Counted from the stretch's first letter, positions 1,353-63,425 are shown. The stretch: DNA of 64,000 nt from Candidatus Levyibacteriota bacterium (GCA_016186645.1 JACPLF010000005.1:33257-97256), one strand, 5' to 3'. A program made the numbers and translations. The notes: generated by a model from the sequence alone, not told the origin.

Positions 1353-2591
1353 ATGAATTTGGCGTATCGGATGAGACCTCAAAAATTGGAAGGATTTTTT
1401 GGACAGGAACATTTGGTTGGTGTTGATAAAATTCTTCGGAAAATGATTGAGCGAAAAACTCTTTTTTCCATGATTTTATGGGGACCTCCAGGGTCCGGCA
1501 AAACTACTTTGGCTTACATAATTTCCAAAAGTACTAATTCTGACTTCTATTCACTTTCCGCCGTTCAAACTGGAAAAGATGATCTCAGGAAAATTGTAGC
1601 CGCCGCACGAGAAAATCTTAAAAAAAACAAAAGGACTATTCTATTTATTGATGAGATTCACAGATGGAATAAGGCTCAGCAAGACGGGCTTTTACCCCAT
1701 GTTGAGTCCGGGTTAATAACCCTAATAGGCGCAACTACAGAAAATCCTTCTTTTGAAGTTATAAGTCCCCTCTTGTCCCGCTGTAGAGTTTTTGTTCTGA
1801 AAGGGCTTGATGAAAAATGTCTTGAGAAAATTTTGGATACTGCTTTGAGCAACAAAGAAAAAGGTCTGGGGAAATACAAAAAGAAAATTAACAAAGACGC
1901 AAAGGAATTACTAATTAGACTAAGCGGCCAGGATGCAAGAATCATGCTCAATGCTTTGGAAATTTCCGTAACAAATTTTAAAGGAAAAAGCCTGCCTGCC
2001 GGCAGGCAGGAAATTACCGCAGACACAATTAAAGAAGTTTTTCAAACTCGCAGCGCAGGCCTTTACGATAAAAAAGCAGATGAACATTACAATATAATCA
2101 GCGCTTACATAAAATCTATGAGAGGATCTGACCCGGATGCGGCTTTATATTATTTGGCCAGAATGTTGGAAAATGGAGAAGATCCGAAATTTATTGCAAG
2201 ACGCATGATAATATTGGCCTCCGAAGATGTCGGACTTGCTGACAGGGGAGCGCTCATTCAGGCAAATGCTGCGTTTGAGGGAGTAACAAAAATTGGCATG
2301 CCGGAGGCCCAACTCATTTTGGCCCATGCAACGCTGTATTTGGCAACAGCCAAAAAATCTAGAGAAGTCGCCAATGCATTAGGAAGGGCTAAAGAAGCAG
2401 TTTATGAATTTCCCAACGAATCCATTCCTCTTCATCTACGAAACGCCCCGACAAAACTTATGAAAGATTTGGGATATGCAAAAAATTATACCTGGAGCGA
2501 TAAATATGTCGGTCCGAAAAGTAATCTAAGTTTTCTTCCCGAAAGATTAAAAGGCAAAAAATTCTTCCACCCTGAGGAAAATAAAAAATAA
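1353..2591 (+). CDS. rarA: Replication-associated recombination protein A (AAA+ ATPase RarA/MgsA)
   Basis: Walker A motif GPPGSGKTT. MgsA-type C-terminal helical domain. 412 aa. Confidence 0.85.
1990..2009. repeat. Perfect 20-bp GC palindrome CCTGCCTGCCGGCAGGCAGG in frame within rarA (read as LPAGRQ)
   Basis: Self-complementary. Member of the CCTGCC...GGCAGG family. Confidence 0.7.
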
Positions 2592-22085: not shown

Positions 22086-22168
22086 GCCCAGGTGATGAAA
22101 TGGTAGACATGCAGTGTTCAGAACGCTGTGTCCGCAAGGATTTGGGAGTTCGAGTCTCCCCCTGGGCA
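22086..22168 (+). tRNA. tRNA-Leu (anticodon CAG)
   Basis: Class II tRNA. Acceptor GCCCAGG pairs with CCTGGGC. Anticodon loop TTCAGAA. Confidence 0.8.
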
Positions 22169-22193
22169 CACATATGCTAGAATAGGTAAGTTT

Positions 22194-22275
22194 GGGCTCG
22201 TGGCGGAACTGGTATACGCGTACGCTTGAGGTGCGTATTCCGCAAGGAGTGGAGGTTCAAGTCCTCTCGAGCCCA
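22194..22275 (+). tRNA. tRNA-Leu (anticodon GAG)
   Basis: Acceptor GGGCTCG pairs with CGAGCCC. Anticodon loop TTGAGGT. Long variable arm. Confidence 0.8.
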
Positions 22276-22279
22276 CCCT

Positions 22280-22352
22280 GGACTCTTGGCTCAGCTGGTA
22301 GAGCGTCTCATTTACACTGAGAAGGTCAGAGGTTCGAATCCTCTAGAGTCAC
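22280..22352 (+). tRNA. tRNA-Val (anticodon TAC) with apparent G1-A72 mismatch
   Basis: D-arm GCTCAGCTGGTAGAGC. Anticodon arm TCTCA-TTTACAC-TGAGA. T-arm AGAGG-TTCGAAT-CCTCT. Confidence 0.6.
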
Positions 22353-23772: not shown

Positions 23773-23853
23773 GCCAGGGTGGCGAAATGGTAGACGCGCA
23801 TGGTTTAGGACCATGTGGGGAAACCTTTGGAGGTTCGAGTCCTCTCCCTGGCA
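23773..23853 (+). tRNA. tRNA-Leu (anticodon TAG)
   Basis: Acceptor GCCAGGG pairs with CCCTGGC. Anticodon arm CATGG-TTTAGGA-CCATG. Long variable arm. Confidence 0.8.
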
Positions 23854-23860
23854 CAGTCTT

Positions 23861-23930
23861 TGGCAGGCGGGCGCGCATGGTTTAGGACCATGTCCTTAAA
23901 GGGATGGAGGTTCAACTCCTCTCCGACCCA
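23861..23930 (+). pseudogene. Degenerate tRNA-Leu(TAG) copy: identical anticodon arm, D-loop deleted, 5' half replaced by GC-rich repeat sequence
   Basis: GCGCATGGTTTAGGACCATG is identical to the upstream tRNA. T-arm GGAGG-TTCAACT-CCTCT is present. No matching 5' acceptor strand. Confidence 0.4.
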
Positions 23931-29947: not shown

Positions 29948-31006
29948 ATGGAAGAAGAGTTGATGCAGATTAAAAATTCAGCGGTTTCAATGATAATTGA
30001 GGCCACGGATCAAAAAGAACTGGAAGAAATAAAACTTCAATTTTTGGGAAGATCAGGAAAATTAACTTCACTGTTTAAAGAAATTACGAAAGTTCCCATA
30101 GAAAGAAGGCGAGAAGTTGGTCAACTCGCCAATGACGTTAAAAATATAATTGAAGAAACCCTTCGGCTAGCTCAGGACAAGGTATCTGATCAAGAATCAC
30201 AATCCCGAAAAGAAAGTATAGACGTAACAGCGCCGGGAATAAAACCTCCAATCGGACACATACACCCTATGACACAAGTACTCTATGATGTGGTTGACAT
30301 ATTCAAAAAGATAGGATTCCAAGTCGCAGACGGACCCGAAATAGAAAGTGACTATTACAATTTTGAAGCACTTAATATCGCAAAAGATCATCCTGCCCGG
30401 GATACTCAACAAACTCTTTATTTAGATACAAGAAATAGTAAAATAAATCCTGGCGAAATAATTTTGAGGACTCAGACTTCTGCAATGCAAGGACGCGTAA
30501 TGGAAAAAGTAAAACCTCCGGTTCGTGTGATTGTTCCCGGAAAAAATTTTAGATATGAACAAGTCGATGCTTCTCATGGATTTGAATTTTGGCAGGTTGA
30601 AGGATTTATGGTTGACGAAAACGTAAGACTAACAGATTTATTCGGAACAATTGATTATGTTCTGAAGAAGTTGATGGGAGAAAGTACCAAATTAAAATTT
30701 GCAACAACTAACTTTCCTTTTGTTGAGCCGGGAGTTGATACATATATTGAGTGTACTGTTTGTAAGGGTAAAGCCCGCCTGCCGGACGGGCAGGGGTGCA
30801 GTTTCTGCAAACATAGCGGATGGAGCGAAATCATGCCGGCTGGAATGATTCATCCAAATGTCTTAAAAGCTGTTGGGTATGATAGTCAAAAAGTTTCAGG
30901 ATTTGCTTTCGCAATAGGCCTTTCCCGTCTCGTAACACTTCGCTATCAAATGGACGATTTGCGTTTGCTTACAAACCCGGATTTAAGAATCCTAAATCAA
31001 TTTTAA
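29948..31006 (+). CDS. pheS: Phenylalanyl-tRNA synthetase alpha subunit
   Basis: Class II motifs. FPFVEPG and GFAFAIGLSRL. Located upstream of pheT. Confidence 0.9.
   Translation: MEEELMQIKNSAVSMIIEATDQKELEEIKLQFLGRSGKLTSLFKEITKVPIERRREVGQLANDVKNIIEETLRLAQDKVSDQESQSRKESIDVTAPGIKPPIGHIHPMTQVLYDVVDIFKKIGFQVADGPEIESDYYNFEALNIAKDHPARDTQQTLYLDTRNSKINPGEIILRTQTSAMQGRVMEKVKPPVRVIVPGKNFRYEQVDASHGFEFWQVEGFMVDENVRLTDLFGTIDYVLKKLMGESTKLKFATTNFPFVEPGVDTYIECTVCKGKARLPDGQGCSFCKHSGWSEIMPAGMIHPNVLKAVGYDSQKVSGFAFAIGLSRLVTLRYQMDDLRLLTNPDLRILNQF
30778..30794. repeat. Palindrome CCTGCC-GGACG-GGCAGG in frame within pheS (read as LPDGQG)
   Basis: 6-bp arms with a 5-nt spacer. Same family. Confidence 0.65.
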
Positions 31007-31093
31007 ATTGAAAAAGGTAAATTGTAAAAACACATTGTAAATTTCAAATTTAATATGAATATTTACTATTTAATATTTACTATTTAATATTTT

Positions 31094-33019
31094 ATGCTGG
31101 CACCTTTGTCTTGGTTAAAAGAATATGTAGACATAAAATTAACTCCCAAAGAATTGGGAGAAAAACTTACCGAAGTTGGACTTGGCGTTGAAAAAATTAC
31201 CAAAACTTCAGATGACACTATTTTTGAATTGGAAATAACTCCAAACCGCCCTGACTTACTTTCAATTATTGGAATTACTCGCGAAATTGCAGCAATTGAA
31301 AACCAGCCTGCCGGCAAGGCAGGTAAAAATATTAAATATCCCAAATTCAAAACCCAACTCAAACCAACTGCAAAAGTACTTCCACTAACTATCAAAACTG
31401 ATTCAAAAATTAACCCAAGATTTACAGGAATTATTATTTCGGGAGTAAAAGTAGGGGAATCCCCAAAATGGCTAAAAGACCGCTTAGAAAAAATGGGGCA
31501 GAGACCCATCAATAATATTGTTGATATTACCAATTATGTAATGCTGGAATTGGGCAATCCTATTCATGCTTTTGATTACGACAAAATTGCTGAACATATA
31601 ATGATAGTTTCTCAAACAAAAGGCGGGGAAAAATTTGAAAGCGTAGACGGAGTAACTTATCACCTTCCCAAAGATACGGTCGTAATATCTGACAAAGAAA
31701 AAATTATAGATCTTTGCGGGATAAAAGGGGGAAGAAATACAGGAACTTATGAGGATACAAAAACTATTTTTATCCGTGTTCCTGTTGAAATCTCAAATTT
31801 AATAAGAAGAACATCTCTATCTCTTGGATTGAGAAGTGAGGCATCAAGTATTTTTGAGAGAGGAGTTAATGCCGGCGGTACAATTGATGCTTTGAAAAGA
31901 ACAGTTGATTTGGTTTTGGAATTGGCAGGCGGAGAAGTCGCAAGCGAACTTTATGATATAAAAAAAGAATATTTTAAACCTTGGAAATTAGAACTAAGAG
32001 TAAAAAGATTAAACCAAATTTTAGGCATTGAAATTCCAACAAAAAAAATTCTGGAGATTTTAGGATCACTCAATCTTTCACCCATACACCTTCCAGGTGA
32101 ACGGAAACGACACCTGGAAGGTGAAACGGTTATTGAATGTGCCATTCCAACCTACAGAAATGATTTAAAAATCGAAGAAGATTTGATTGAAGAAATTGCC
32201 CGAATTTATGGTTATAATAATTTTCCCAAAACAATGCCGGGAGGTACAATCCCAACAAAACAAATTCCATATTTCAAAGATTACAGACTTGATGAGAAAG
32301 TAAAAAATATTTTAAAAGCAAGCGGTTTTTCAGAAATTTATACCTACAGCTTGATAAGCGAAAAAGATTTAATAGAGGCGGGCATTAATTCTCAAAATGT
32401 TCTCCGCGTTGATAATCCGGTAAGTCGTGACTTCGAATATCTGCGTCCAACACTTAAAACTAATTTATTGAAAGCTCTGTCTCAAAATAAGTCTAACTTT
32501 GAAAAAATTAATCTTTTTGAATTAGGAAAAGTTTACAACGGAAAAAATTTAGATGAGGCAGAAGAAAATTATTTTCTCTCTGGGATTTCAAACTCTAAAT
32601 CATATTTTGAAGTTAAAGGAATGCTTGAAAAAATCTTTGAAGACTTAGGAATCAAAGAAGATCCAACAAGATATATTGAGATCTTGAACGAAAGAATTTT
32701 CTTTGAATTAAATTATTCAGAGCTTATTAAGAAAATAAATCCTGATAAAAAATTTATTCCTCTACCAAAATATCCGCCTATCGTAGAAGATTTATCAATA
32801 ATTTCAGACGCAAAAACTAGTGAGATTATTGATGAAATAAAAAAACAAAGTTCTATTATTGTTAATGTTTCACTTTTGGATCAGTTTGAAGATTCAAGAA
32901 CTTTTCATATTGTCTACCAAGATGAAAATAAAAACTTAACAGGAGAAGAAGTTGCTAAAATCCGCGAAAAACTCCTCAAGAGTCTTAAAGAAAAGTTCAC
33001 CGCCAGACTAAGGGAATAG
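31094..33019 (+). CDS. pheT: Phenylalanyl-tRNA synthetase beta subunit (short form)
   Basis: B3/B4 and B5 domain region. C-terminal FDV-like domain. Synteny with pheS. Confidence 0.85.
   Translation: MLAPLSWLKEYVDIKLTPKELGEKLTEVGLGVEKITKTSDDTIFELEITPNRPDLLSIIGITREIAAIENQPAGKAGKNIKYPKFKTQLKPTAKVLPLTIKTDSKINPRFTGIIISGVKVGESPKWLKDRLEKMGQRPINNIVDITNYVMLELGNPIHAFDYDKIAEHIMIVSQTKGGEKFESVDGVTYHLPKDTVVISDKEKIIDLCGIKGGRNTGTYEDTKTIFIRVPVEISNLIRRTSLSLGLRSEASSIFERGVNAGGTIDALKRTVDLVLELAGGEVASELYDIKKEYFKPWKLELRVKRLNQILGIEIPTKKILEILGSLNLSPIHLPGERKRHLEGETVIECAIPTYRNDLKIEEDLIEEIARIYGYNNFPKTMPGGTIPTKQIPYFKDYRLDEKVKNILKASGFSEIYTYSLISEKDLIEAGINSQNVLRVDNPVSRDFEYLRPTLKTNLLKALSQNKSNFEKINLFELGKVYNGKNLDEAEENYFLSGISNSKSYFEVKGMLEKIFEDLGIKEDPTRYIEILNERIFFELNYSELIKKINPDKKFIPLPKYPPIVEDLSIISDAKTSEIIDEIKKQSSIIVNVSLLDQFEDSRTFHIVYQDENKNLTGEEVAKIREKLLKSLKEKFTARLRE
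31307..31323. repeat. Palindrome CCTGCC-GGCAA-GGCAGG in frame within pheT (read as PAGKAG)
   Basis: Same family. Confidence 0.7.
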
Positions 33020-38294: not shown

Positions 38295-40334
38295 ATGAAC
38301 CTTCAGATGCCAGTTGAGAAAGCCGGAAGGATATATAAAATGTATGCACGGCGCCTTGAAAAATTGGGCATAAAAACTTTTGAAGATTTCTTGTATCACA
38401 TCCCAAGCCGCTATGATGATTTTTCTTTAATCTCAAAAATCAACAGAGTCCAGCCCGGCGAAGTGGTTACTATTCAGGGTACTGTTTCTGAAATAAATAA
38501 TGAATTTACAAAAAATTTCAAAAAACTGCAAAGAGCAGAGATTGCAGATGACACCGGCACTATCGAAGTTGTGTGGTTTAATCAGCCTTATCTAACAAAA
38601 GTTATTAACAAAAACGACAAAATTTCTCTATCTGGAACTGTAGATTGGTTTTCAAGAAAATTAGTCATGCAGTCTCCGGAATATGAGATATTAAACGACT
38701 CACCAACAATTCACACCGGAAGATTAGTGCCTGTATATCCTGAAACTCGGGGAATAACATCCAAATGGCTTAGAAGACAGGTATATAAATTGATTAAAGA
38801 AAACCTTCAAACATTTGTCGAATATCTTCCCGATCAAATTATTAACGAGCATTCCCTGATAAAATTTGACGCCGCAATTAAACATATTCACTTCCCGCAA
38901 AATAAAGAATTGGCTGAAAAGTCAAAAAAAAGACTGTCATTTGATGAACTTTTCCTTTTACAGCTCTCTAGCCTGGAGAGAAAATTAAACTGGAATAAAA
39001 CTTTGGTGAGCAATCCATTTTCTGTAGATAAATTTAAAAATGAAACTGAAAATTTTTTAAACAGATTACCATTCAAATTAACAAGCGCTCAAAAAAGAGT
39101 AGTTGAAGAAATATTTAAAGATTTATCGAAATCCAAACCTATGAATAGGCTATTGGAAGGAGATGTCGGATCGGGAAAAACAGTTGTATCAGCAATAGGG
39201 ATGTATTTGGCTTTTTTAAACGGCTTTCAATCTGTTCTTATGGCTCCTACAGAAATTCTGGCTCAGCAGCATTACAAAACAATCTCAAAATTACTAGAAC
39301 CTTTTGGAATTAAAATTGGATTTGCAACCGGAAGTACAAAAACTAAATTAAAAAAATTTGATGTCATGGTCGGAACTCATGCTGTTTTAGAAAAGGGAAT
39401 TAACTTTGAAAAATTAGGACTTGTTGTCATTGACGAACAGCAAAGATTTGGGGTCGAGCAAAGAGCGATAATACGAAGCCGAGGTAAAAACCCTCACCTC
39501 CTTACTATGACAGCAACACCAATCCCCCGAACAATTGCATTAACTTTGTATGGAGATTTGGATCTTTCGATTCTGGATGAAATGCCTATTGGAAGAAAAC
39601 AAATCAAAACCTGGCTTGTGCCCCCGGAAAAACGTCTTAATGCTTATGCATGGATTGAAAAAGAAATTAAAACAACAAAAAGCCAGGTATTTATAGTTTG
39701 CCCTTTTATTGAAGAATCGGAAACTATGCAGACTGTGAAAGCGGCAAACAAAGAATTTGAATATTTGCAAAAAAATGTCTTCAAAAACCCGCCTGCCGGC
39801 GAGGCAAGCCTAAAACTTGGACTTTTGCACGGAAAAATGAAAGCAAAAGAAAAAGAAGAGGTTTTGACTAAGTTTAGGGATGGAAAAATTGATATTTTGG
39901 TTGCAACTCCTGTTGTTGAGGTTGGAATTGACATTCCAAATGCAGCAATTATTGTGATTGAAGCAGCAGAGCGTTTTGGTCTTGCGCAATTACATCAACT
40001 TCGAGGAAGAGTAGGAAGAGGAGATAAACAATCTTATTGCCTATTATTTACAGAGTCAAAGAATCCGCAGACTCTTGAACGATTAAAAGCCATGGAAAAG
40101 CATAATTTTGGCGCAGAATTAGCAGAACTGGATTTAAAGCTTAGAGGACCTGGGGAAATTTATGGAACCATGCAGCATGGCCGAAAATTCCTCAAAATCG
40201 CAAGTTTTTACGATCTGGATTTGATAAAGAGAGTTAGATTGGCTGCTGAAAAAATATTTCCAGACCTAAATAGATATCCTAAGCTTTCAGAAAAATTAAA
40301 AACCATAAATCTCAAAAAAGTCTCTCCCGATTAG
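38295..40334 (+). CDS. recG: ATP-dependent DNA helicase RecG
   Basis: Wedge domain. Helicase motifs GDVGSGKT, DEQQRFG and TATPIPRT. Confidence 0.9.
   Translation: MNLQMPVEKAGRIYKMYARRLEKLGIKTFEDFLYHIPSRYDDFSLISKINRVQPGEVVTIQGTVSEINNEFTKNFKKLQRAEIADDTGTIEVVWFNQPYLTKVINKNDKISLSGTVDWFSRKLVMQSPEYEILNDSPTIHTGRLVPVYPETRGITSKWLRRQVYKLIKENLQTFVEYLPDQIINEHSLIKFDAAIKHIHFPQNKELAEKSKKRLSFDELFLLQLSSLERKLNWNKTLVSNPFSVDKFKNETENFLNRLPFKLTSAQKRVVEEIFKDLSKSKPMNRLLEGDVGSGKTVVSAIGMYLAFLNGFQSVLMAPTEILAQQHYKTISKLLEPFGIKIGFATGSTKTKLKKFDVMVGTHAVLEKGINFEKLGLVVIDEQQRFGVEQRAIIRSRGKNPHLLTMTATPIPRTIALTLYGDLDLSILDEMPIGRKQIKTWLVPPEKRLNAYAWIEKEIKTTKSQVFIVCPFIEESETMQTVKAANKEFEYLQKNVFKNPPAGEASLKLGLLHGKMKAKEKEEVLTKFRDGKIDILVATPVVEVGIDIPNAAIIVIEAAERFGLAQLHQLRGRVGRGDKQSYCLLFTESKNPQTLERLKAMEKHNFGAELAELDLKLRGPGEIYGTMQHGRKFLKIASFYDLDLIKRVRLAAEKIFPDLNRYPKLSEKLKTINLKKVSPD
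39792..39808. repeat. Palindrome CCTGCC-GGCGA-GGCAAG (one mismatch) in frame within recG (read as PAGEAS)
   Basis: Same family. Confidence 0.6.
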
Positions 40335-49544: not shown

Positions 49545-49796
49545 ATGAAAAAAGCATTAGAATACATTGTCACTCAAATCGTTGATGACCCCGAGAAGGT
49601 AGAAATTTTTGAAACAGAAGATAACGGCATGATAAATTTCGCTATTTCTGTCGCTCCTTCCGACATGGGTAAGATTATTGGCAAAAATGGTAAGATAATA
49701 AGAGCCATAAGAAATGTTGTTAAAATAGCTGCAATAAAACAAAACAAGAAAATAAATATCGCGCTGACCGAAACCACGTCTTCCCAGCTTCTATGA
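49545..49796 (+). CDS. KH-domain RNA-binding protein (UPF0109)
   Basis: IGKNGKIIRAIRNVV GxxG KH motif. Conserved position between rpsP and trmD. Confidence 0.8.
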   Translation: MKKALEYIVTQIVDDPEKVEIFETEDNGMINFAISVAPSDMGKIIGKNGKIIRAIRNVVKIAAIKQNKKINIALTETTSSQLL

Positions 49797-50566
49797 ATAT
49801 CTCGATCCTGACTCTTTTCCCCGAAATGTTCCAAGGTCCTTTTGACTATTCCATTATAAAAAACGCGAAAGTGCAAAAGAAAGTTGATATTGAATTTATA
49901 AATATTCGGGATTTCGGTATCGGAAAACATAAAGTTGTTGACGATAAACCTTATGGAGGAGGAATTGGTATGATATTAAGAGTTGATGTCCTGGAGAAAG
50001 CAATTTCTGAAACAAAAGACCTGCCCGCCATCAGCTCGCGCCGAAGGCAAGCGCAGGCGGGCAAAAGACCCGCTTCGCCCGCCCAGACCCGGCGAGGCTG
50101 GCCGCGAGGCGAGCTAACGACTAAAGACCAAAGGGTAATTCTTCTAAGTCCCCATGGGAAAACTTTTAATCAGAAAAAAGCCTTGGAGCTTTCCCGCCTC
50201 AAACATCTTATTCTTGTATGCGGACGTTATGAGGGAATTGATGAAAGAGCAAAAGAATTTATAGACGAAGAACTGTCCATTGGAGACTTCGTGGTTACTG
50301 GCGGAGAAATTCCGGCAATGCTGGTCGTAGATGCTGTGGTAAGACTTATTGATGGCGTCCTAAAGAAAGGCGTGACAACTTCGGAGTCTTTTTCGCCAAT
50401 TCTAGAATACCCACAATACACCAAGCCCAATGCTTTCAAAAACTTAGACGTTCCTCCTATTCTCCTCAGCGGAGATCATAAGAAAATAAAAGATTGGAGA
50501 GATAATGAAGCGCTCATTATAACTAATAAACTTCGCCCTGATCTACTTAGCCGGAAAAAATCTTAA
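49793..50566 (+). CDS. trmD: tRNA (guanine37-N1)-methyltransferase TrmD carrying an in-frame GC-rich insertion of about 32 aa
   Basis: FPEMF, DKPYGGG, LVCGRYEGIDER and GGEIPAM motifs. Inserted segment PAISSRRRQAQAGKRPASPAQTRRGWPRGELT is encoded by 50019-50114. Confidence 0.85.
   Translation: MNISILTLFPEMFQGPFDYSIIKNAKVQKKVDIEFINIRDFGIGKHKVVDDKPYGGGIGMILRVDVLEKAISETKDLPAISSRRRQAQAGKRPASPAQTRRGWPRGELTTKDQRVILLSPHGKTFNQKKALELSRLKHLILVCGRYEGIDERAKEFIDEELSIGDFVVTGGEIPAMLVVDAVVRLIDGVLKKGVTTSESFSPILEYPQYTKPNAFKNLDVPPILLSGDHKKIKDWRDNEALIITNKLRPDLLSRKKS
50019..50114. repeat. GC-rich (about 70% GC) palindromic element inserted in frame in trmD
   Basis: Starts ACCTGCCCGCC and contains the inverted repeat TGCCCGCC/GGCGGGCA. 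Related copies at 22838-22912, 23672-23770 and 53704-53777. Confidence 0.6.
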
Positions 50567-52854: not shown

Positions 52855-53799
52855 CTAATTGGCCACAAAAAGGCCATACGATAGATAAGGCAGATAAGTC
52901 TGTGAATATCCCTCAAATGCAACTATCTTAATGGTTGACGATCCGGATGTTCCGGTTGAAGTGATCATATATCCCTGAGAAGGCAAAGATGTGCAATTGT
53001 TTCCCGCATGATTACAAGCATATACTCCGACCACAGCGTCTTTATAAATCGGAATCACTCTCATAAAAACAATGTCATTAACTCCTTTTGCAAGATCGCT
53101 GTTTGCTCCTGTTTCCGGTGTCCTATTTCCAAAAGTGAAGTTTGAAATTCCTGTGACGGTAAAACTTCCTGAATCAGCTTGAGTAAAATTGTTTACTGAG
53201 ATTCGTGCGGGACAGCTATCATAGGCATAACGATAAGATTTTATTTCTCCTGTATTTTTATTTCTTAGAATTACTATTGCCTGAATCGCAGCAGGAGCTG
53301 TTGACGTACCGCATGCCTCCTGGGGAGTACCCCAATATAAATGCAGAAAATTGGGAGACAGAGCAGAAGAATAATCCGGGGTACCATCTGCATTATGATT
53401 GACAAACCAAACATCGGCTCCCTCGTCTTTTGGGACAGCATTGCCTCCGTTTATTAAAAAACTGGAGCTTTGAATCTGCGTGAATTGAGTGGCATAACTA
53501 GAGTTATTGCTTGGATTATTTCCCTGTACTGCTATAGGAACAGAACCCTGTATTGCTCGCTCTATTCCTGCTTCTGCGGCAGCCAAAGCTTTTTGAGATT
53601 CTGCTTCTTCGGTTGAAGTCCTAAGGCTCGTAATGCTTCTTGAGGCAAGAGTAAGACCTATAGTTGATGCTATTATAATAACCAGAATAACTATCAAAAG
53701 AATCTGCCCGCCTTGACTCTCGCATCGCGCTCGCCTCGATTCGGCGAAGCGGGGCGAAGCGGGCGGCGAGGCAGGGCTCTTTTCTTTCCGCTCAGACAT
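52855..53799 (-). CDS. Pilin-like secreted protein (divergent N-terminal hydrophobic helix); N-terminus encoded by a GC-rich repeat
   Basis: GQILLIVILVIIIASTIGLTLA helix after a charged leader. No canonical GFTLIE motif. Confidence 0.35.
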   Translation of the reverse strand: MSERKEKSPASPPASPRFAESRRARCESQGGQILLIVILVIIIASTIGLTLASRSITSLRTSTEEAESQKALAAAEAGIERAIQGSVPIAVQGNNPSNNSSYATQFTQIQSSSFLINGGNAVPKDEGADVWFVNHNADGTPDYSSALSPNFLHLYWGTPQEACGTSTAPAAIQAIVILRNKNTGEIKSYRYAYDSCPARISVNNFTQADSGSFTVTGISNFTFGNRTPETGANSDLAKGVNDIVFMRVIPIYKDAVVGVYACNHAGNNCTSLPSQGYMITSTGTSGSSTIKIVAFEGYSQTYLPYLSYGLFVAN

Positions 53800-53908: not shown

Positions 53909-55342
53909 TTATGGGGCTACGTTCTGCCAGGCTCTTGGGATATATCCGGACAAAGAAGGATAATGAAGCATGAAATCAGGTCTTTCAATAAAGCTGACAG
54001 AAGGGTAGGAAGAGTTGTTTGCGCAAAGGGTTCTGTTGTTTATGAAAGTTCCGGTTGGCCCGCCGATTCCTCTTCCCGCATTTGCAACAACTGTACCTGC
54101 AATGTTAAGCCTTAGATCAACAGTCGGACAGGAATTTGCGCCATCAGCTATGAAATTAACATCTGCGGAATAAAGTCCTTGTATTGTTGGGTTTGCTGAA
54201 GAAGCCTGCTCTCCAATACTTCTATCAACAGTTATGTTTCCTTTAGCTGAAAATATAACAGTAGAAGTATTGGGAACTGAAATTTTTTCATTGATATTTA
54301 AATTTCCATTTATTAAAATTACATAGTTTTGGTTTGGGGGAAAGGCATATCCGCTGCCATTAAGATTAAGATCGCTGTTTATCCAATAAACTCCATGTTC
54401 AACATTTGCGTTCCAAGCGCAATTAAAAGCATCTCCATTACTGCAAAGACTCTCTGCTCCTTTTTTGGCAATTGCAGATGCATTCACGGTATCTAGTAAG
54501 AATCTGTAGGAAGTGTAAATCAGATTATGGGTATCTGTAAAAACATCAGGATATGAAAAACTCCCAACTTGCCAGTTAAATGGATTGGGGCTTGCTTGTC
54601 CATTCCCAAAGAAAGGAGCAGTTTTCCCTGAGAATATTACACCTGGCATTCCGCCAGTGCCGGGAATTGAAGCGTATTTCCCTGAAGGCAGAATATTTGT
54701 AAATCCTGCGTCCCATCTCATGTCAGAACCTGCGGACTGGAACCAGGCAGAAGCAAGATTTGTCACTCCGCTATTTAGATTAATAATGTTCCCGCTGGAA
54801 CAGCTTGCCTCACTTGTTATGGGGACAGAACACCCTGCTCCGACATTAACAATAAGGGAGTTTCCTGGAGTTGTCGGATATGTGAAGCTATATCCTGCAG
54901 GCAGTCCTGAATAAGTAATTGCATACTGGCCCGAAGGAAGACTGTTAAAAGAATAATTTCCTGTCCCAACAGGACTTGAATAAGAGCCTGAAGCAGGAAG
55001 CCTGGTTATTGCAATAGCGCCTGTGTAATTGGAGTCTCCAATGCTTTTTGTATCGCTATTGACATCATTGAAAATCTTTCCTGATATGGAATAAGTGGGG
55101 ATAGGGGTTGGAGTGGGAGTTGAGGTTGGAGCCGGGGTGGGAATGGCGCAGGAACAGGAACCTGTGATAATGCAATTAGTATTCTGCATAGAGTTACTGC
55201 CGTTTGGCTGGCAGCTGAGATCTACGCTTGCTGCGCAAAAGGTAGAGGTGTTTGAGAGGGAAAAAACACTACAGGAAGGACCATTATAGAAATTCAGAGT
55301 GCATGAATAACTGTTGCATCCTGCCGCAGGGGGGAAGGACAA
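53909..55342 (-). CDS. Secreted Cys-rich protein with PT linker and SdrD-B/Cna-B-like domain (adhesin-like)
   Basis: PTPAPTSTPTPTPIPT linker. SGKIFNDVNSD motif. Confidence 0.4.
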   Translation of the reverse strand: MSFPPAAGCNSYSCTLNFYNGPSCSVFSLSNTSTFCAASVDLSCQPNGSNSMQNTNCIITGSCSCAIPTPAPTSTPTPTPIPTYSISGKIFNDVNSDTKSIGDSNYTGAIAITRLPASGSYSSPVGTGNYSFNSLPSGQYAITYSGLPAGYSFTYPTTPGNSLIVNVGAGCSVPITSEASCSSGNIINLNSGVTNLASAWFQSAGSDMRWDAGFTNILPSGKYASIPGTGGMPGVIFSGKTAPFFGNGQASPNPFNWQVGSFSYPDVFTDTHNLIYTSYRFLLDTVNASAIAKKGAESLCSNGDAFNCAWNANVEHGVYWINSDLNLNGSGYAFPPNQNYVILINGNLNINEKISVPNTSTVIFSAKGNITVDRSIGEQASSANPTIQGLYSADVNFIADGANSCPTVDLRLNIAGTVVANAGRGIGGPTGTFINNRTLCANNSSYPSVSFIERPDFMLHYPSLSGYIPRAWQNVAP

Positions 55343-56007
55343 TAAATAGAATAGTTAACAGTTGCATCCGAAATCATAAGACGATTGGCAGGATTAGCGC
55401 TGGTAACTGTGCAGCCGGCAGGAGGAGATGTAGTAAGTGTTACATTAACTGAGTGCTGATCCGGCCAGATGCGGGGAGTCTGGTAAACCCCAAATGAATC
55501 TGTAATGTAGGGACCTAAAAGATTGTCTGCAGTTACATCCTTTACTAGAATGTGGGCTCCGCTACCATAGTCATCATCGCCTGCATTCCTATCAAATACA
55601 CCATTATTGTCATTATCGTAATATACAGTGCCCTTTATCAGCCAGAGGGTTGGGGTGGGGGTGGGGGTTGGTGTATTAGTCGGGGTTGGAGTGGGGGTGG
55701 GGAGATTATTGCAACAGCGAAATTCATAAAGGGGAGTAATGCCGCGTGGTCGATTTTCACAATAGTCGTATCCTAATCCTCCTTGAGCAATTGGAGTAGT
55801 GCAACATTGAGTGCCTGTAAATCCACCAGATCCAGTACAGTCTTGCTGAAAGAGATTGCTACTGCAAGAAGGCAGACTAGATTGTGTCGCCCACCAAGAA
55901 GTACAAGTCTGAGCAAATATTTTTTGAGGAATTATTAGAACAAAGATAACTACAGAAAGGAAAATTACAAGCGACTTAACTATAGACGAGAATAAATTCT
56001 TTTGCAC
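55294..56007 (-). CDS. Secreted protein with PT linker and SdrD-B-like calcium-binding domain
   Basis: Signal peptide. PTPTPTNTPTPTPTPT linker. GTVYYDNDNNGVFDRNAGDDD motif. Confidence 0.45.
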   Translation of the reverse strand: MQKNLFSSIVKSLVIFLSVVIFVLIIPQKIFAQTCTSWWATQSSLPSCSSNLFQQDCTGSGGFTGTQCCTTPIAQGGLGYDYCENRPRGITPLYEFRCCNNLPTPTPTPTNTPTPTPTPTLWLIKGTVYYDNDNNGVFDRNAGDDDYGSGAHILVKDVTADNLLGPYITDSFGVYQTPRIWPDQHSVNVTLTTSPPAGCTVTSANPANRLMISDATVNYSIYCPSPLRQDATVIHAL

Positions 56008-58323: not shown

Positions 58324-59274
58324 GTGAAAAAGCTTATATTAATCGACGGCAACGCTATCTTGCACAGGGCGTATCATGCCCTGCCTCCTTTGACTAACAA
58401 AAATGGAATTGTGGTTAACGCTGTTTATGGGTTTTTCTCAATGTTTCTTAAGATTCTGGAGGATCAAAAGCCTGATTTTATAATAGTCTGTTTTGACAAA
58501 AAAGCCCCGACTTTCCGCAAAGAATTATTTGTCGGTTATCAGGCAAAACGTCCTAAGATGTCAGATGAGCTAATTCCGCAAATCAAATTTGTCCATGATA
58601 TTTTGGAAAGGGCAAAAGTTGAAATTTTTGAAATTGACGGATATGAAGCAGATGACATGATAGGTACGATAGCCTATCAAACTCAAAACTCAAAACTCAA
58701 AACTCAAAACATAGAAACGTTGATTGTTTCAGGAGATCGGGATTTGCTGCAGCTTGTTAATCATCATGTCAAAATGATCGCGCCGATTACAGGTTTGACC
58801 AACATGATTGTTTATGATGAAGCTTTGGTTTTTCAAAAATATGGGATTAAACCTTCCCAAATGGTTGATTACAAAGCGCTGGTTGGAGATCCGTCAGATA
58901 ATTATCCTGGCGTAGCAGGAATTGGTCCCAAAACCGCGTCGACCCTTATTAATCAATACAAAAACCTGGAAAATATATATAAAAATTTGGAAAAAATCAA
59001 AGCCAAAAATCCAAATCTTGCTTTAAAACTTGCAGAAGGTGCGGAAGCTGCAGGACTTGCGCAAAAACTGGCGGGAGTTGTTTTGGACGCCCCGATAACT
59101 TTGGATATTGAAAAATCAAGCATAAAATTTTTTGATAAAGAAGGTCTGAAGAAGGAATTTGAGAAATTCGGCTTCAAAAGCTTGTTAAAGCGATTAAGCG
59201 ACCCGCGACCCGCCTTCGCCAAGGCTTCTGCGGGCAAAGAAAAACCAGAAGCAGAACAGATGGGACTATTATGA
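58324..59274 (+). CDS. 5'-3' exonuclease (Pol I N-terminal FEN-like nuclease domain only)
   Basis: LILIDGNAILHRAYHA and GYEADDMIGT motifs. HhH region GIGPKTA. Confidence 0.85.
   Translation: MKKLILIDGNAILHRAYHALPPLTNKNGIVVNAVYGFFSMFLKILEDQKPDFIIVCFDKKAPTFRKELFVGYQAKRPKMSDELIPQIKFVHDILERAKVEIFEIDGYEADDMIGTIAYQTQNSKLKTQNIETLIVSGDRDLLQLVNHHVKMIAPITGLTNMIVYDEALVFQKYGIKPSQMVDYKALVGDPSDNYPGVAGIGPKTASTLINQYKNLENIYKNLEKIKAKNPNLALKLAEGAEAAGLAQKLAGVVLDAPITLDIEKSSIKFFDKEGLKKEFEKFGFKSLLKRLSDPRPAFAKASAGKEKPEAEQMGLL
58679..58712. repeat. Tandem heptanucleotide repeat (AAACTCA) x4.5 inside the 5'-exonuclease CDS
   Basis: TCAAACTCAAAACTCAAAACTCAAAACTCAAAAC encodes QTQNSKLKTQN in a loop between conserved nuclease blocks. 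Confidence 0.7.
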
Positions 59275-60398
59275 ATATAGCCTTAGCGCATGATTACATC
59301 AAGGAGTATGGTGGTGCCGAGCGTGTTTTGGAAGCGCTGCATGAGATTTGGCCGGACGCGCCAGTTTTTACATCTGTTTATTTACCGGAATTTTTGGGTC
59401 CGCATAAAGAGAGATTTAAAAATTGGAATATCAGAACATCATGGTTACAGTTTTTGCCTTTTAAAAATAAGCTAATAAGCCCGATTCGGCTTATAGCACC
59501 TTTTGTGTTCAAAAGTTTTGATTTTTCTAAATTCGATGTGGTAATTGTTTCCGCCACTGGCGCATATGTTAAGCAATTTAAAATTAAAAATTTAAAATTA
59601 AAAATTGTGGAATATTGCCACACGCCGCCAAGGTATCTTTATGGTTATGCAACTGCAAGAGAATGGAAAAATAATTTAATTTTTAGAGTTTTTGGAGAAA
59701 TTGCGAATCATTTTTTGCGCCTTGTGGATTTTAAGTCTAGCCAAAATGTAGATTTTTTCATCGCAAATTCCCACAATGTAGCGGGAAGAATTAAAAAGTT
59801 TTACAGGAAAGATTCAAGTGTGATTTACCCACCCGCCATGCAAGACAGCTTGCTGGCGTTACGGGCAGGTCCGCCATCTACTCCTTACTTCCTCGCAGGA
59901 GGAAGAATTGCGAGGCCAAAACACATTGATTTGATAATTAAAACTTTTGGAAAATTAGATTTACCACTTAAGGTTTTTGGAAGAGGGTTTGCAGGGGCAG
60001 ATTTAAGTTCCAAAAATTCCAACATAGAATTTCTCGGGGAAGTGAGCGATGAAGAGAAAATAAAGTTAATGAGAAATGCGAAGGCTTTTGTTTTTGCCGC
60101 CGAAGATGAAGATTTTGGAATAACTCCGGTTGAGGCAATGTCAGTTGGCACGCCAGTTATCGCCTTTGCGTCAGGAGGAATTTTGGAAACGATAATTGAC
60201 GGGCAGACGGGAGTTCTTTATTACTTTAATGATTTAAACCTGCCTGCCGGCAAGGCAGGTCATTTAAGTGAAGCAATCCGTAAGTTTGAGAAAATGAAAT
60301 TTGACAGAGAGTTAATAATAAAACACGCGCAAAAATTTTCAAAAGAAAGATTCAGAAATGAGATTTTTGAATTCGTAAACTCAAAGTTTAAAAAGTAA
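59271..60398 (+). CDS. Glycosyltransferase family 4 (GT-B, group 1)
   Basis: C-terminal EDFGITPVEAMSVGTPVIA EX7E-like motif. Confidence 0.8.
   Translation: MNIALAHDYIKEYGGAERVLEALHEIWPDAPVFTSVYLPEFLGPHKERFKNWNIRTSWLQFLPFKNKLISPIRLIAPFVFKSFDFSKFDVVIVSATGAYVKQFKIKNLKLKIVEYCHTPPRYLYGYATAREWKNNLIFRVFGEIANHFLRLVDFKSSQNVDFFIANSHNVAGRIKKFYRKDSSVIYPPAMQDSLLALRAGPPSTPYFLAGGRIARPKHIDLIIKTFGKLDLPLKVFGRGFAGADLSSKNSNIEFLGEVSDEEKIKLMRNAKAFVFAAEDEDFGITPVEAMSVGTPVIAFASGGILETIIDGQTGVLYYFNDLNLPAGKAGHLSEAIRKFEKMKFDRELIIKHAQKFSKERFRNEIFEFVNSKFKK
60239..60259. repeat. Palindrome CCTGCCTGCCGGCAAGGCAGG in frame within the glycosyltransferase (read as LPAGKAG)
   Basis: Same family. Confidence 0.7.
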
Positions 60399-61390: not shown

Positions 61391-61508
61391 TCTCAGAACT
61401 CAAATCGCAAAACTCAAAACCACAACTAAAATCTAAAATCTTTAGATGACGAAGTTTTGAGATTTACAGATGTAGATTTGACATTTGAGATCTAAGATTT
61501 GAGATTTC

Positions 61509-62594
61509 ATGCATTTAAAACACTTGAGCCTTCAAAACTTCAGAAACTACAAAAGAACAAGTTTTAATTTCTCTGAAAATACCACTTTAGTTGTTGGTCC
61601 AAATACGGCTGGTAAATCCAATTTAATTGAAGCTATTTTTTTTATGGCAAGGGGGGGAAGTTTTAGAATTGATAAAGATGAGCAATTGGTAAAATTTGGT
61701 GAAGAAGTTGCCAGAATCAAAGGAAAACTTGGAGATAAAGACTTAGAAGTTCTAATAGCGAAGGAGGGCGTAGGGGGGAGAATTACTCCTTTTAAAAAAT
61801 ATTTGGTCAATGGAGTAAATAAGCGAAAAGTGGATTTTGTCGGAAATTTTTTTGCAGTTCTTTTTGCGCCAAATGATCTTGAAATTATCGTAGGCAGTCC
61901 CGGGGAAAGGCGAGGCTTTATAAACAATATATTAATTCAGACAGATCGCGATTATCGCTTGGCAATGACATTTTATGAAAAGGGATTAAGAATGCGGAAT
62001 GCGCTTTTGCATAGAGCACAAGAAACAGGCGCAAGATCGGAAAAAGAATTTGCGTATTGGGACAATCTCTTGATAGTTCAAGGCCAAAAAATTACAAAAA
62101 AAAGAGAAGAATTTATTGATTATTTAAGAATCTCAAGAAAAGAAATTCTGAATTTTGAAATATTTTATGACAAAAGCATTATTTCAAAAGATCGGCTTTT
62201 GCAATATAAAGATGCGGAAGTTGGAGCCGGTGTAACCTTGGTTGGGCCTCACAGAGACGACCTTATTATACGAATTTATCCAAATAAAATTAATGCGAAT
62301 GAATCCGAATCAGTGGACATTAGGTATTTTGGTTCTAGGGGACAGCAAAGACTTGCGGTTTTACAGTTGAAAATTTTAGAATTGGCTTATGTCGAAAAGA
62401 CAACAGGTGAGCGGCCAGTTCTTCTTTTGGATGATATTTTTTCAGAACTGGATGAAAAGCATATAAGTTTGGTTTTAGACCAGACCCTCCAACGCCTTGG
62501 CTACGGCGGGCAAGCAATTATTACCACAACACACAGGGAATTTGTAGGCAAGGAGCTTCTAAAAGATCTAAATGTGATAGAATTGAAGAAATAA
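61509..62594 (+). CDS. recF: DNA replication and repair protein RecF
   Basis: NFRNY...VGPNTAGKSNLIEAI Walker A. C-terminal LLLDDIFSELD signature. Confidence 0.85.
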   Translation: MHLKHLSLQNFRNYKRTSFNFSENTTLVVGPNTAGKSNLIEAIFFMARGGSFRIDKDEQLVKFGEEVARIKGKLGDKDLEVLIAKEGVGGRITPFKKYLVNGVNKRKVDFVGNFFAVLFAPNDLEIIVGSPGERRGFINNILIQTDRDYRLAMTFYEKGLRMRNALLHRAQETGARSEKEFAYWDNLLIVQGQKITKKREEFIDYLRISRKEILNFEIFYDKSIISKDRLLQYKDAEVGAGVTLVGPHRDDLIIRIYPNKINANESESVDIRYFGSRGQQRLAVLQLKILELAYVEKTTGERPVLLLDDIFSELDEKHISLVLDQTLQRLGYGGQAIITTTHREFVGKELLKDLNVIELKK

Positions 62595-63425
62595 ATGGAG
62601 AAATTTGACCCTGAAATTTTTAAAAAACTTTATATTCCGCCGCCCAATTCGCACAAAGGGCAAAATGGAAAGTTAATGATTATTGGAGGGTCCCAGCTTT
62701 TTCACGCAGCCTCTCTCTGGTCTTTGAAAGTCGCGTCTCGAATTGTTGATATGGTTTTTTATTCCTCGGTTCCGCAAAATAGTCAGATTGTTGCAAAAGC
62801 CAAGCAAGAGTTTAGAGACGGAATTGTGGTGCCAAGAAATAAGATTGGGGATTATATTGTAGAATCCGATTGTATTTTGATCGGTCCCGGTCTGCCGCGA
62901 AAAAATGGAGAAGAGGTCGGAGATGACGACACTAAGGATTTGACGGAAAATTTATTGAAAAAGTATCCGGACAAAAAATGGGTGGTAGATGGAGGTAGTC
63001 TTCAGACCAGTGCCCCATCTTTTATTCCCTCCAACAGCATACTTACGCCCCATGTAAAAGAGTTTGAAAAGATCTTTGATTTAAGATTTAAGATTAAAGA
63101 TTTAAGAATGATTAGGGAAATGGCGAAGAAGTATAATTGCACGATTTTATTAAAAGGGCCGGTGGATGTTGTTTGCTCGCCGCATAAATGCGTAAGGATT
63201 TCGGGGGGAAATGCGGGGATGACCAAAGGCGGGACAGGAGATGTTTTGGCAGGATTAGTTGCTGGGCTTTACTGTAAAAATGACGACCCATTTTTGGTCG
63301 CAAGTGCAGCAAGTTTTATCAATAAGAAAGCAGGAGAAAGTTTATTTGCAAAAGTCGGCTACTACTTCAACGCTTCGGACCTAGCGGATGAGATTCCTAG
63401 GGTGATGAAGGATTTAGTAGTTTAA
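62595..63425 (+). CDS. nnrD: ADP-dependent NAD(P)H-hydrate dehydratase (YjeF C-terminal domain)
   Basis: HKGQNGKLMIIGGS and GGTGDVLAG motifs. Confidence 0.8.
   Translation: MEKFDPEIFKKLYIPPPNSHKGQNGKLMIIGGSQLFHAASLWSLKVASRIVDMVFYSSVPQNSQIVAKAKQEFRDGIVVPRNKIGDYIVESDCILIGPGLPRKNGEEVGDDDTKDLTENLLKKYPDKKWVVDGGSLQTSAPSFIPSNSILTPHVKEFEKIFDLRFKIKDLRMIREMAKKYNCTILLKGPVDVVCSPHKCVRISGGNAGMTKGGTGDVLAGLVAGLYCKNDDPFLVASAASFINKKAGESLFAKVGYYFNASDLADEIPRVMKDLVV

Follow-up and report, generated by a model that had tools for sequence, protein, structure and literature searches.

A 21-nucleotide GC-rich hairpin unit inserted in frame in five genes of a Candidatus Levybacteria genome, a probable mini mobile element

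Why do five conserved genes in one stretch of bacterial DNA each carry a short GC-rich palindrome inside their coding sequence? The question arises from a 64,000-nucleotide (nt) stretch of a Candidatus Levyibacteriota genome (GCA_016186645.1, JACPLF010000005.1:33257-97256), analysed as a whole and referred to here as the window. A first-pass annotation of this window had described the palindromes as a selfish element that inserts into coding sequence and keeps the frame, with two conserved arms around a free 5-nt spacer. The five copies instead proved to be versions of a single unit with a fixed length of 21 nt, within which the loop varies; we call this unit X21. We favour the reading that the copies belong to a non-autonomous mini mobile element, which is defined by its hairpin and filtered by selection on the peptide that it encodes. 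In its behaviour, X21 would rank among the smallest known mobile DNA elements.

The 21-nt unit and its five insertion sites

The relatives of its PheS protein placed the window in Candidatus Levybacteria (Microgenomates, candidate phyla radiation [CPR]), and database entries for its RarA and GT4 proteins derive from a 185-kb contig of a metagenome-assembled Levybacteria genome. Its GC content was 37.6%, and not about 35% as first estimated. Matches to CCTGCC-N(0-12)-GGCAGG were found at 1991-2010, 30778-30794, 31307-31323 and 60239-60259, whereas only 0.01 matches were expected from 100 dinucleotide-preserving shuffles, none of which reached six matches. The copy at 39792-39808 in recG has one arm mismatch (GGCAAG), as the annotation had said, and the palindrome in rarA lies at 1991-2010 and not at 1990-2009. 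The proposed palindrome family is therefore real, with four exact loci and one near copy at counts far above the random expectation. A Hamming scan with the 21-mer and a 20-nt palindromic variant returned exactly five family members in the 64 kb (one per 12.8 kb), and an independent repeat search of the window recovered the same family as its family D3. The hosts were confirmed by Pfam as MgsA/RarA, PheS, PheT, RecG and a GT4 glycosyltransferase (Table 1).

Two other origins were rejected. Chance was ruled out by the shuffles and by plasmid and phage records, whose 9.6 Gb contained no exact 21-mer (0 copies in 7.3 Gb of plasmids and 0 in 2.3 Gb of phage genomes), and a known RNA family was ruled out by Rfam, whose thresholds were reached in the window by tRNAs only. 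Separately from X21, a cluster of tRNA genes at 22086-22352 and 23773-23853, with a third copy of repeat D1 at about 23872-23924, explained the repeat families D1, D2 and D12 and two GC-rich 15-mers.

Table 1. Positions of the X21 copies in the window and of a solitary transposase gene in three other loci
Feature	Location	Strand	Host open reading frame (ORF) or neighbours	Sequence
rarA/mgsA copy	1990-2010		1353-2591	Perfect 20-nt palindrome CCTGCCTGCCGGCAGGCAGG at 1991-2010 plus one flanking base
pheS copy	30774-30794	+	29948-31006	CCCGCCTGCCGGACGGGCAGG
pheT copy	31303-31323	+	31094-33019	CCAGCCTGCCGGCAAGGCAGG
recG copy	39788-39808	+	38295-40334	CCCGCCTGCCGGCGAGGCAAG, one stem mismatch
GT4 copy	60239-60259	+	59271-60398	Canonical unit CCTGCCTGCCGGCAAGGCAGG
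IS200-type Y1 transposase gene	L155, 2678-3058		Between dnaJ and rsmE	
IS200-type Y1 transposase gene	L209, 2742-3077		Between dnaJ and rsmE	
IS200-type Y1 transposase gene	L210, 2718-3098		Between dnaJ and rsmE	

The 21-nt consensus, CCTGCCTGCCGGCAAGGCAGG, consists of a 4-nt 5' tail, CCNG (variants CCTG, CCAG, CCCG and CCGG), followed by a 6-bp stem, CCTGCC/GGCAGG, around a 5-nt loop. As single-stranded DNA it had a predicted folding energy of -6.8 kcal/mol, and the recG copy, with its stem mismatch, had a weak predicted fold (-4.3 kcal/mol). Nine differences separate the window copies from the canonical unit: eight affect the tail (position 3) or loop, and the ninth affects the stem. Since the unit measures 3 x 7 nt, or seven codons, and its sequence has no stop codon in any of the six frames, its insertion into a gene never breaks the reading frame.

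All five copies were exact insertions of 7 amino acids (21 nt) when the host genes were aligned with their orthologs. In RarA, the insert encodes SLPAGRQ (residues 213-219, with a boundary uncertain by 1-2 nt) and was missing from 118 of 119 homologs, the sole other carrier being P0002 (90% identical). The pheS insert encodes ARLPDGQ between the two CxxC pairs of a zinc knuckle; it was missing from the outgroups and from 16 of 17 Levybacteria orthologs, and locus L004 was the only other carrier. The remaining three inserts were seen in the window alone among the sequences aligned: QPAGKAG in pheT, which follows ...AAIEN, was missing from all 19 aligned orthologs, L004 included; the 7 amino acids in recG (PPAGEAS/NPPAGEA) were missing from 6 of 6 Levybacteria orthologs; and LPAGKAG in GT4 (residues 324-330) was missing from 119 of 119 homologs. 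The empty sites were clean. Deletion of the 21 nt gave back the ortholog reading, with KGK joined to GCS in pheS, EN to K in pheT and FKN to LKL in recG (as in L009), and the empty pheT site of the orthologs reads GAAAA^TAAG. These alignments ruled out the reading that the residues are ancestral, a possibility against which the annotation had asked that the orthologs be checked, and they bear out its proposal of in-frame insertion.

Each of the five insertion sites lies 3' of an A-rich run whose last base is a purine. A consistent target-site duplication was looked for by comparing filled with empty sites, both in the window and at the dnaJ site described below, and none was seen; the sites showed 0-3 nt of inconsistent microhomology. 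The copies in rarA, pheT, recG and GT4 share one phase, x-L/Q/P-P-A-G-x-A, which is the frame that yields LPAGKAG. The pheS copy is in a Cys-containing frame, shifted by one base relative to the other four, and its Cys codon is changed from TGC to CGC (Arg). The annotation had also put four copies in a common phase, but it had conflated the two CTG triplets of the unit; pheS is the odd one.

Placement of the inserts in surface loops had also been proposed for checking, and was assessed on AlphaFold (AF2) models of two hosts, built on the homolog alignments. In the RarA model, the insert fell in a loop between the helices 195-208 and 223-232, with a local pLDDT (predicted local distance difference test) of 65. 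In the GT4 model, it fell in a coil (318-330) between a strand (314-317) and a helix (331-341), with a pLDDT of 64 versus 92 and 94 in the adjacent blocks. In both modelled hosts, the insert is therefore predicted to sit in a low-confidence loop of an otherwise confident model.

Other short inserts were seen at or near the same loops in other Levybacteria, namely in pheT (L001, L003, L006, L008, L009 and L014), RarA (P0091 and P0099) and GT4 (P0157, P0164, P0168, P0174 and P0230). Their sequences differ from those of X21 (SSHLPGG, SPHLSSHLSSGS, SSFAGQAK, RQGLGGQAK, HSREGGNPA, SSGRQKP and SADAGSGRY), which suggests that there are several mini-insert families and that certain permissive loops are used again and again. 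The window itself holds further GC-rich blocks. One, at 50020-50114 in trmD (ORF 49793-50566), comprises about 90 GC-rich nt, adds about 30 residues (SSRRRQAQAGKRPASPAQTRRGWPRGEL) and divides the Pfam tRNA_m1G_MT domain into two stretches. Several nested imperfect palindromes make it up, e.g., CTGCCCGCC...GGCGGGCA and GCTTCGCC...GGCGAGGC; these are distinct from the arms of X21, to which they are related. A second block, at 53742-53777 (minus strand) in the N-terminal part of the PilX_N-like ORF 52855-53799, has the outer arms CCTGCC(T)CGCC ... GGCGGGCAG and a 10-nt tandem repeat, GGCGAAGCGG, and encodes SPASPPASPRFAESRRAR ahead of a transmembrane helix. Within ORF 55294-56007 (minus strand), positions 55647-55702 hold tandem copies of a G-rich hexamer/18-mer (GGGTGG, 9.3 units).

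Distribution, reading frame and target of X21

The family was lineage-specific among the relatives: of 18 further pheS loci from Levybacteria (266 kb in all), L004 alone had members, and 17 had none. A metagenome scan with CCNGCCTGCCGGCAAGGCAGG found the unit in at least 120 contigs, with 127 copies among the matches listed; the counts in this section refer to those matches. Almost all of them were the exact canonical 21-mer, and they stood between about 120 distinct and unrelated pairs of flanks, away from contig ends, in contigs that mostly had a GC content of 30-50%. Secondary copies were few in 764 kb of other loci. Seven IMG/VR contigs also contained a copy, the viral contigs having a GC content of 52-68%. 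One host protein, on a 315-kb contig (L091), is a member of a 90%-identity cluster named Cytophagales/Cyclobacteriaceae. X21 is thus widespread in uncultured bacteria and not limited to the CPR. The annotation had tied the element to housekeeping coding sequences. All five window copies are intragenic, and the family as a whole is restricted neither to such genes nor to coding DNA, nor to this genome.

Copies were seen in each of the six frames and also outside coding DNA, with a strong bias between frames. Of the 127 copies, 88 (about 70%) lay within ORFs of at least 150 codons; 52 of these were read as LPAGKAG, 15 as PALPAGR, and 21 in the four Cys-containing frames. The base that precedes X21 was a purine in 113 of 120 copies (94%) and in 5 of 5 window copies. 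This bias held outside ORFs as well (29 of 33 copies), indicating that it is a property of insertion and not of coding selection. No independent GC-skew signal of a replication-strand bias was obtained, and the orientation of X21 tracked the strand of the host gene.

An exact direct repeat of 7 nt flanked 11 copies (18 copies with one mismatch allowed), and no other repeat length was found. The copies with such flanks lie within tandem heptamer arrays, which typically measure 30-35 nt once X21 is subtracted. Arrays of this kind made up 0.13% of 761 kb, yet 12 of 31 held an X21, a roughly 70-fold enrichment; about 85-90% of the copies had no heptamer context. The 7-nt flanks were accordingly rejected as a general target duplication; they belong to heptamer arrays, present with about 10% of copies, that pre-date or accompany X21. 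Heptamer arrays were about 5 times commoner in Levybacteria and in X21-bearing loci than in other bacteria. Three naked arrays of 4.3-4.6 units (30-32 nt, corresponding to +21 nt) are present in window genes, at 58679-58710 in a 5'-3' exonuclease gene, at 59575-59606 in the GT4 gene and at 63078-63107 in ORF 62595-63425. The array in GT4 falls in a loop (residues 96-110) that is hypervariable among homologs and contains heptamer-like low-complexity inserts there. Two further arrays are intergenic (30999-31092 and 61392-61509).

Composite arrangements were also observed. X21 was nested in another GC-rich repeat, between CCTCCTTCGCCAAG and GCTACGGCGGACAGG, at five places (L141 at 361, 965 and 1590; L144 at 3671; L136 at 7212), which points to the insertion of one mini-repeat into another. 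Two related IMG/VR contigs of 52-55% GC contained intergenic head-to-head doublets of X21 and its reverse complement, each a perfect 42-nt palindrome (L205 at 632-673 and 2655-2696; L207 at 2003-2044). The same contigs carried several copies of CCTGCCTGCCGGTAGGCATGG, and a variant was also present there in two tandem copies with a run of T after them. These doublets have a REPIN- or terminator-like layout that was unseen in the window.

Recent movement and its possible causes

Evidence for recent movement came from dnaJ. In the L155 population, DnaJ alleles that are 98-99% identical differed by the 7 residues GHAYRQA. A filled locus (L210) and an empty one (L209), from samples ERZ27247916 and ERZ27247851, respectively, matched at 98.5% identity along 3.5 kb; 33 mismatches and one gap set them apart. 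This gap was a 21-nt family member, the reverse complement of CCTGCCTGCCGGTAGGCATGG, with a boundary ambiguity of 3 nt, and the flanks of the insertion were 100% identical over about 120 nt. The presence/absence polymorphism that the annotation had proposed to look for in relatives thus exists between strains, and its claim of mobility is strengthened by this together with the occurrence of the same 21-mer in at least 120 unrelated contexts.

Shared copies were compared in two orthologous pairs that were found through protein homology and hence not ascertained on the element, and they were better conserved than their flanks. The rarA copies of the window and L201 were identical at 20 of 20 bases, and the pheS copies of the window and L004 (10827-10847) at 20 of 21, with one change in the loop; the flanks were about 15% divergent. 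In a set of 21 distinct variants, pairing was preserved in 98.4% of stem cells, the pair 7-19 was changed from UA to CG in two variants, and variation was concentrated at position 3 and at loop positions 12-15; because the set was gathered by its resemblance to the consensus, only the contrast between stem and non-stem is informative. In a neighbour-joining tree of pheS, the window and L004 were not sisters, and the window grouped with the insert-free L001, L002 and L003. The nucleotide identity between the window and L004 was 0.86 within 20 codons on either side of the insert versus 0.70 over the whole gene.

On our reading, a copy would insert as a discrete 21-nt unit directly 3' of a purine, and in this genome after an A-rich run, without a consistent target-site duplication. 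Its length and the absence of stops would keep the host frame intact. Purifying selection would then remove the copies that fall in structured protein regions or in the four Cys-containing frames, so that those surviving would be found in surface loops and be read mostly as LPAGKAG or PALPAGR. The stem would stay intact, either through recognition by the mobilising machinery or through the youth of the copies, while the tail and loop would drift. The spread would most plausibly be transposition-like, through a single-stranded hairpin intermediate (with an HUH/Y1-type or other enzyme acting in trans) or an RNA intermediate, and we infer that X21 is selfish rather than useful. A bolder form of this reading, which we regard as possible and rather doubtful, is that X21 is truly mobile, would count among the smallest such elements, and through its length and stop-free sequence colonises coding DNA across phyla (Patescibacteria, Bacteroidota and phage-like contigs) as a single hairpin that has no terminal repeats and leaves no target duplication, by a novel mechanism tied to the generation of heptamer arrays; a conserved host replication or repair activity, or an RNA intermediate, might then replace a dedicated transposase.

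A gene for a mobilising enzyme was sought near the copies. Across 2.19 Mb, tblastn with an approximate IS200 transposase query in a search for RAYT/IS200 genes returned one Y1_Tnp gene (in L155; PF01797, Pfam E=2.5e-24); the window and the remaining 119 of the 120 metagenome loci had none. The polymorphic dnaJ copy is about 0.9-1.0 kb away from this solitary gene (Table 1), and an X21 in miaB is 1.5 kb away from it. A second search, with the L155 protein, found no homolog in the window or in other loci. We regard this gene as a lead to the mobiliser of X21, and not as evidence.

Several observations weigh against a mobile element. No mobilising gene was found, all-against-all clustering of 1557 ORFs from the 120 loci gave no gene family near the copies in more than 8 loci, and the immediate flanks of the L155 transposase gene are other hairpins (GGAACC..GGTTCC, and CGAGAATTTATTCTCG twice). 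HUH transposases of the IS200/IS605 group need two ends, and no HUH transposase substrate as small as 21 nt is known. The same sequence in Levybacteria and in the Cytophagales-named cluster is hard to explain by a lineage-specific transposase. The mobile-element model does not account for the strong link between X21 and heptamer arrays. The pheS insert, shared as it is by non-sister genomes, calls for precise loss, for recombination or for site-specific re-insertion, each of which is possible, and conservation of the copies above the synonymous expectation could mean that the sequence has a function. The copy count for the host genome, moreover, covers 64 kb.

A function of this kind would make X21 a signal under selection, such as a DNA uptake sequence for the competence machinery on which CPR bacteria rely, a site of binding or methylation (the unit contains GCCGGC/CCGG), or a hairpin in the mRNA at which translation would pause between domains. 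Besides the conservation of the orthologous copies, it would account for the conserved stems with their one compensatory pair and for the identical sequence in a Levybacteria genome and the Cytophagales-named cluster, and the window does encode pilus-type proteins (PilX_N match in 52855-53799). Uptake sequences are reported to be biased toward repair genes, and the known ones (DUS/USS) have a density of about 1 per kb. Two of the five X21 hosts are DNA-repair genes, which also recalls the repair-gene bias of intragenic REPs (PMC3733652). We nevertheless consider such a signal unlikely: the density of X21 in the window, with few secondary copies elsewhere, is far under that of uptake sequences, and the copies are irregularly positioned, occur in six frames and in non-coding DNA, and appear as whole 21-nt insertions and not via point mutation. 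Close relatives manage without them, and an uptake signal common to different phyla would undo self-recognition.

Somewhat less probable again is an origin as a by-product of replication errors (hairpin slippage, template switching or snap-back), in which the inserts would come from the process behind the 21-nt heptamer-triplet expansions and would recur, without transposition, because it favours (CCTG)n/(CAGG)n palindromes. The length of 3 x 7 nt, the enrichment of X21 in heptamer arrays with flanking repeats of 7 nt only, and the naked arrays with their additional 21 nt in window genes all fit such a process, as does the rarA variant, which is a perfect inverted duplication of CCTGCCTGCC; bacterial heptamer repeats are over-represented, which has been ascribed to polymerase slippage (PMC4692102). 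Against this, replication error lacks a local template at the five sites, because the orthologs contain no 21-nt precursor there, most copies have no heptamer context, and a de novo process would not repeat an arbitrary 21-mer with the asymmetric loop GGCAA exactly in at least 120 contexts. An artefact or coincidence (an adaptor, a chimera junction or a random GC-rich match in metagenome assemblies) might be suspected from an exact 21-mer in many projects whose data are all metagenome-assembled, and is effectively refuted. The window copies are all in frame, the orthologous copies in independently assembled genomes carry substitutions, the biases in reading frame and -1 purine are strong, the copies are not at contig ends, and neither the shuffles nor the plasmid and phage records yielded comparable matches. 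We therefore retain the hairpin-defined mobile element as the preferred explanation of X21.

Should X21 move as a 21-nt hairpin, the minimum size of mobile DNA would be pushed down. The filled and empty alleles in near-identical strains offer a tractable case for how REP- or SDR-like mini-repeats spread. Because the same arbitrary 21-mer is found in Levybacteria and in the Cytophagales-named cluster, either horizontal spread or a shared recognition machinery is called for. X21 would also keep supplying reduced CPR genomes with 7-residue loop insertions in their essential proteins, with a bearing on protein evolution, alignment-based phylogenomics and gene annotation.

X21 in relation to known repeat systems

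A literature search gave no relevant match for the DNA strings, for LPAGKAG, PALPAGR or LPAGRQ, or for palindromic repeats in CPR/Patescibacteria. X21 works like the REP, Rickettsia palindromic element (RPE), small dispersed repeat (SDR) and GC-cluster elements; it lacks defining features of REPs, RPEs and GC clusters and is a member of none of these three groups.

REPs and REPINs, which are mobilised by RAYT/Y1 enzymes, are GC-rich stem-loops of 20-40 nt (Di Nocera et al. 2013, PMC3733652; Bertels & Rainey 2011, PMC3116915), and some REPs lie in frame within replication, repair and tRNA-synthetase genes (PMC3733652). Like them, X21 is a short, dispersed GC-rich stem-loop with a 4-nt tail (5 copies in 64 kb and at least 120 contigs elsewhere), and it leaves no target duplication, as is expected of the HUH-type movement of REPs. 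In contrast to REPs, X21 ends without a GTAG or CGTC tag and has the tail CCNG; about 70% of its copies (88 of 127 among the matches listed) are inside ORFs and not extragenic; it is nearly always a singleton, doublets that resemble the inverted REPIN pairs being found in L205 and L207 only; and its hosts come from more than one phylum, REP families being specific to a species or genus. A RAYT gene flanked by X21 was looked for and not found in the 64-kb window and the 120 metagenome loci; the Y1_Tnp gene of L155 has X-family copies 1.0 and 1.5 kb away, and other hairpins directly beside it.

RPEs are described as in-frame insertions that are tolerated in surface regions and absent from orthologs (Ogata et al. 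2000, as summarised in PMC3733652). The analogy drawn by the first-pass annotation holds to this extent, in that X21 is palindromic, is tolerated in frame in genes for conserved proteins and is missing from their orthologs. It does not extend to membership, since RPEs measure about 100-150 bp (30-50 amino acids) and are confined to Rickettsia, whereas X21 has 21 nt and 7 amino acids, a Levybacteria host and no sequence relation to them. Yeast mitochondrial GC clusters are GC-rich palindromes in an AT-rich genome that are regarded as mobile, show in-frame polymorphism in var1 and vary by substitutions in the loop (PMC8811140). X21 is likewise a GC-rich palindrome in a window of low GC content and a polymorphic in-frame insertion; unlike the clusters, which are organellar, measure 30-50 bp and have AG/TAG terminal repeats taken as target duplications, it is bacterial and lacks a consistent duplication. 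The byp elements are skipped by the ribosome, and X21 needs no bypass because it is seven codons long and stop-free. Uptake sequences are dense, spread by point mutation and species-specific, whereas X21 is sparse, is inserted as 21 nt and is found both in Levybacteria and in the Cytophagales-named cluster.

Closest to X21 in size and heptamer context are the cyanobacterial SDRs. In 2008, Elhai et al. reportedly described SDR1-8 as elements of 21-27 nt, proposed them as the smallest mobile elements, and noted hairpins with compensatory changes, recent mobility, nested insertions and frequent embedding in tandem heptamer repeats. X21 appears to share these features, as a dispersed 21-nt hairpin with a compensatory change, recent mobility, an association with heptamer arrays and nesting (L141 and L144). 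The link to heptamer arrays, said to have been seen earlier in cyanobacteria, suggests a general mechanism that is still to be worked out. SDRs are reported as confined to Nostocaceae (PMC5861425). The hosts of X21 to which a group was assigned here, by contrast, are not cyanobacteria (CPR/Levybacteria and the contig with the Cytophagales-clustered protein, besides GC-rich viral contigs), and X21, unlike SDRs, lies mostly within genes and keeps their frame, with a strong bias between frames.

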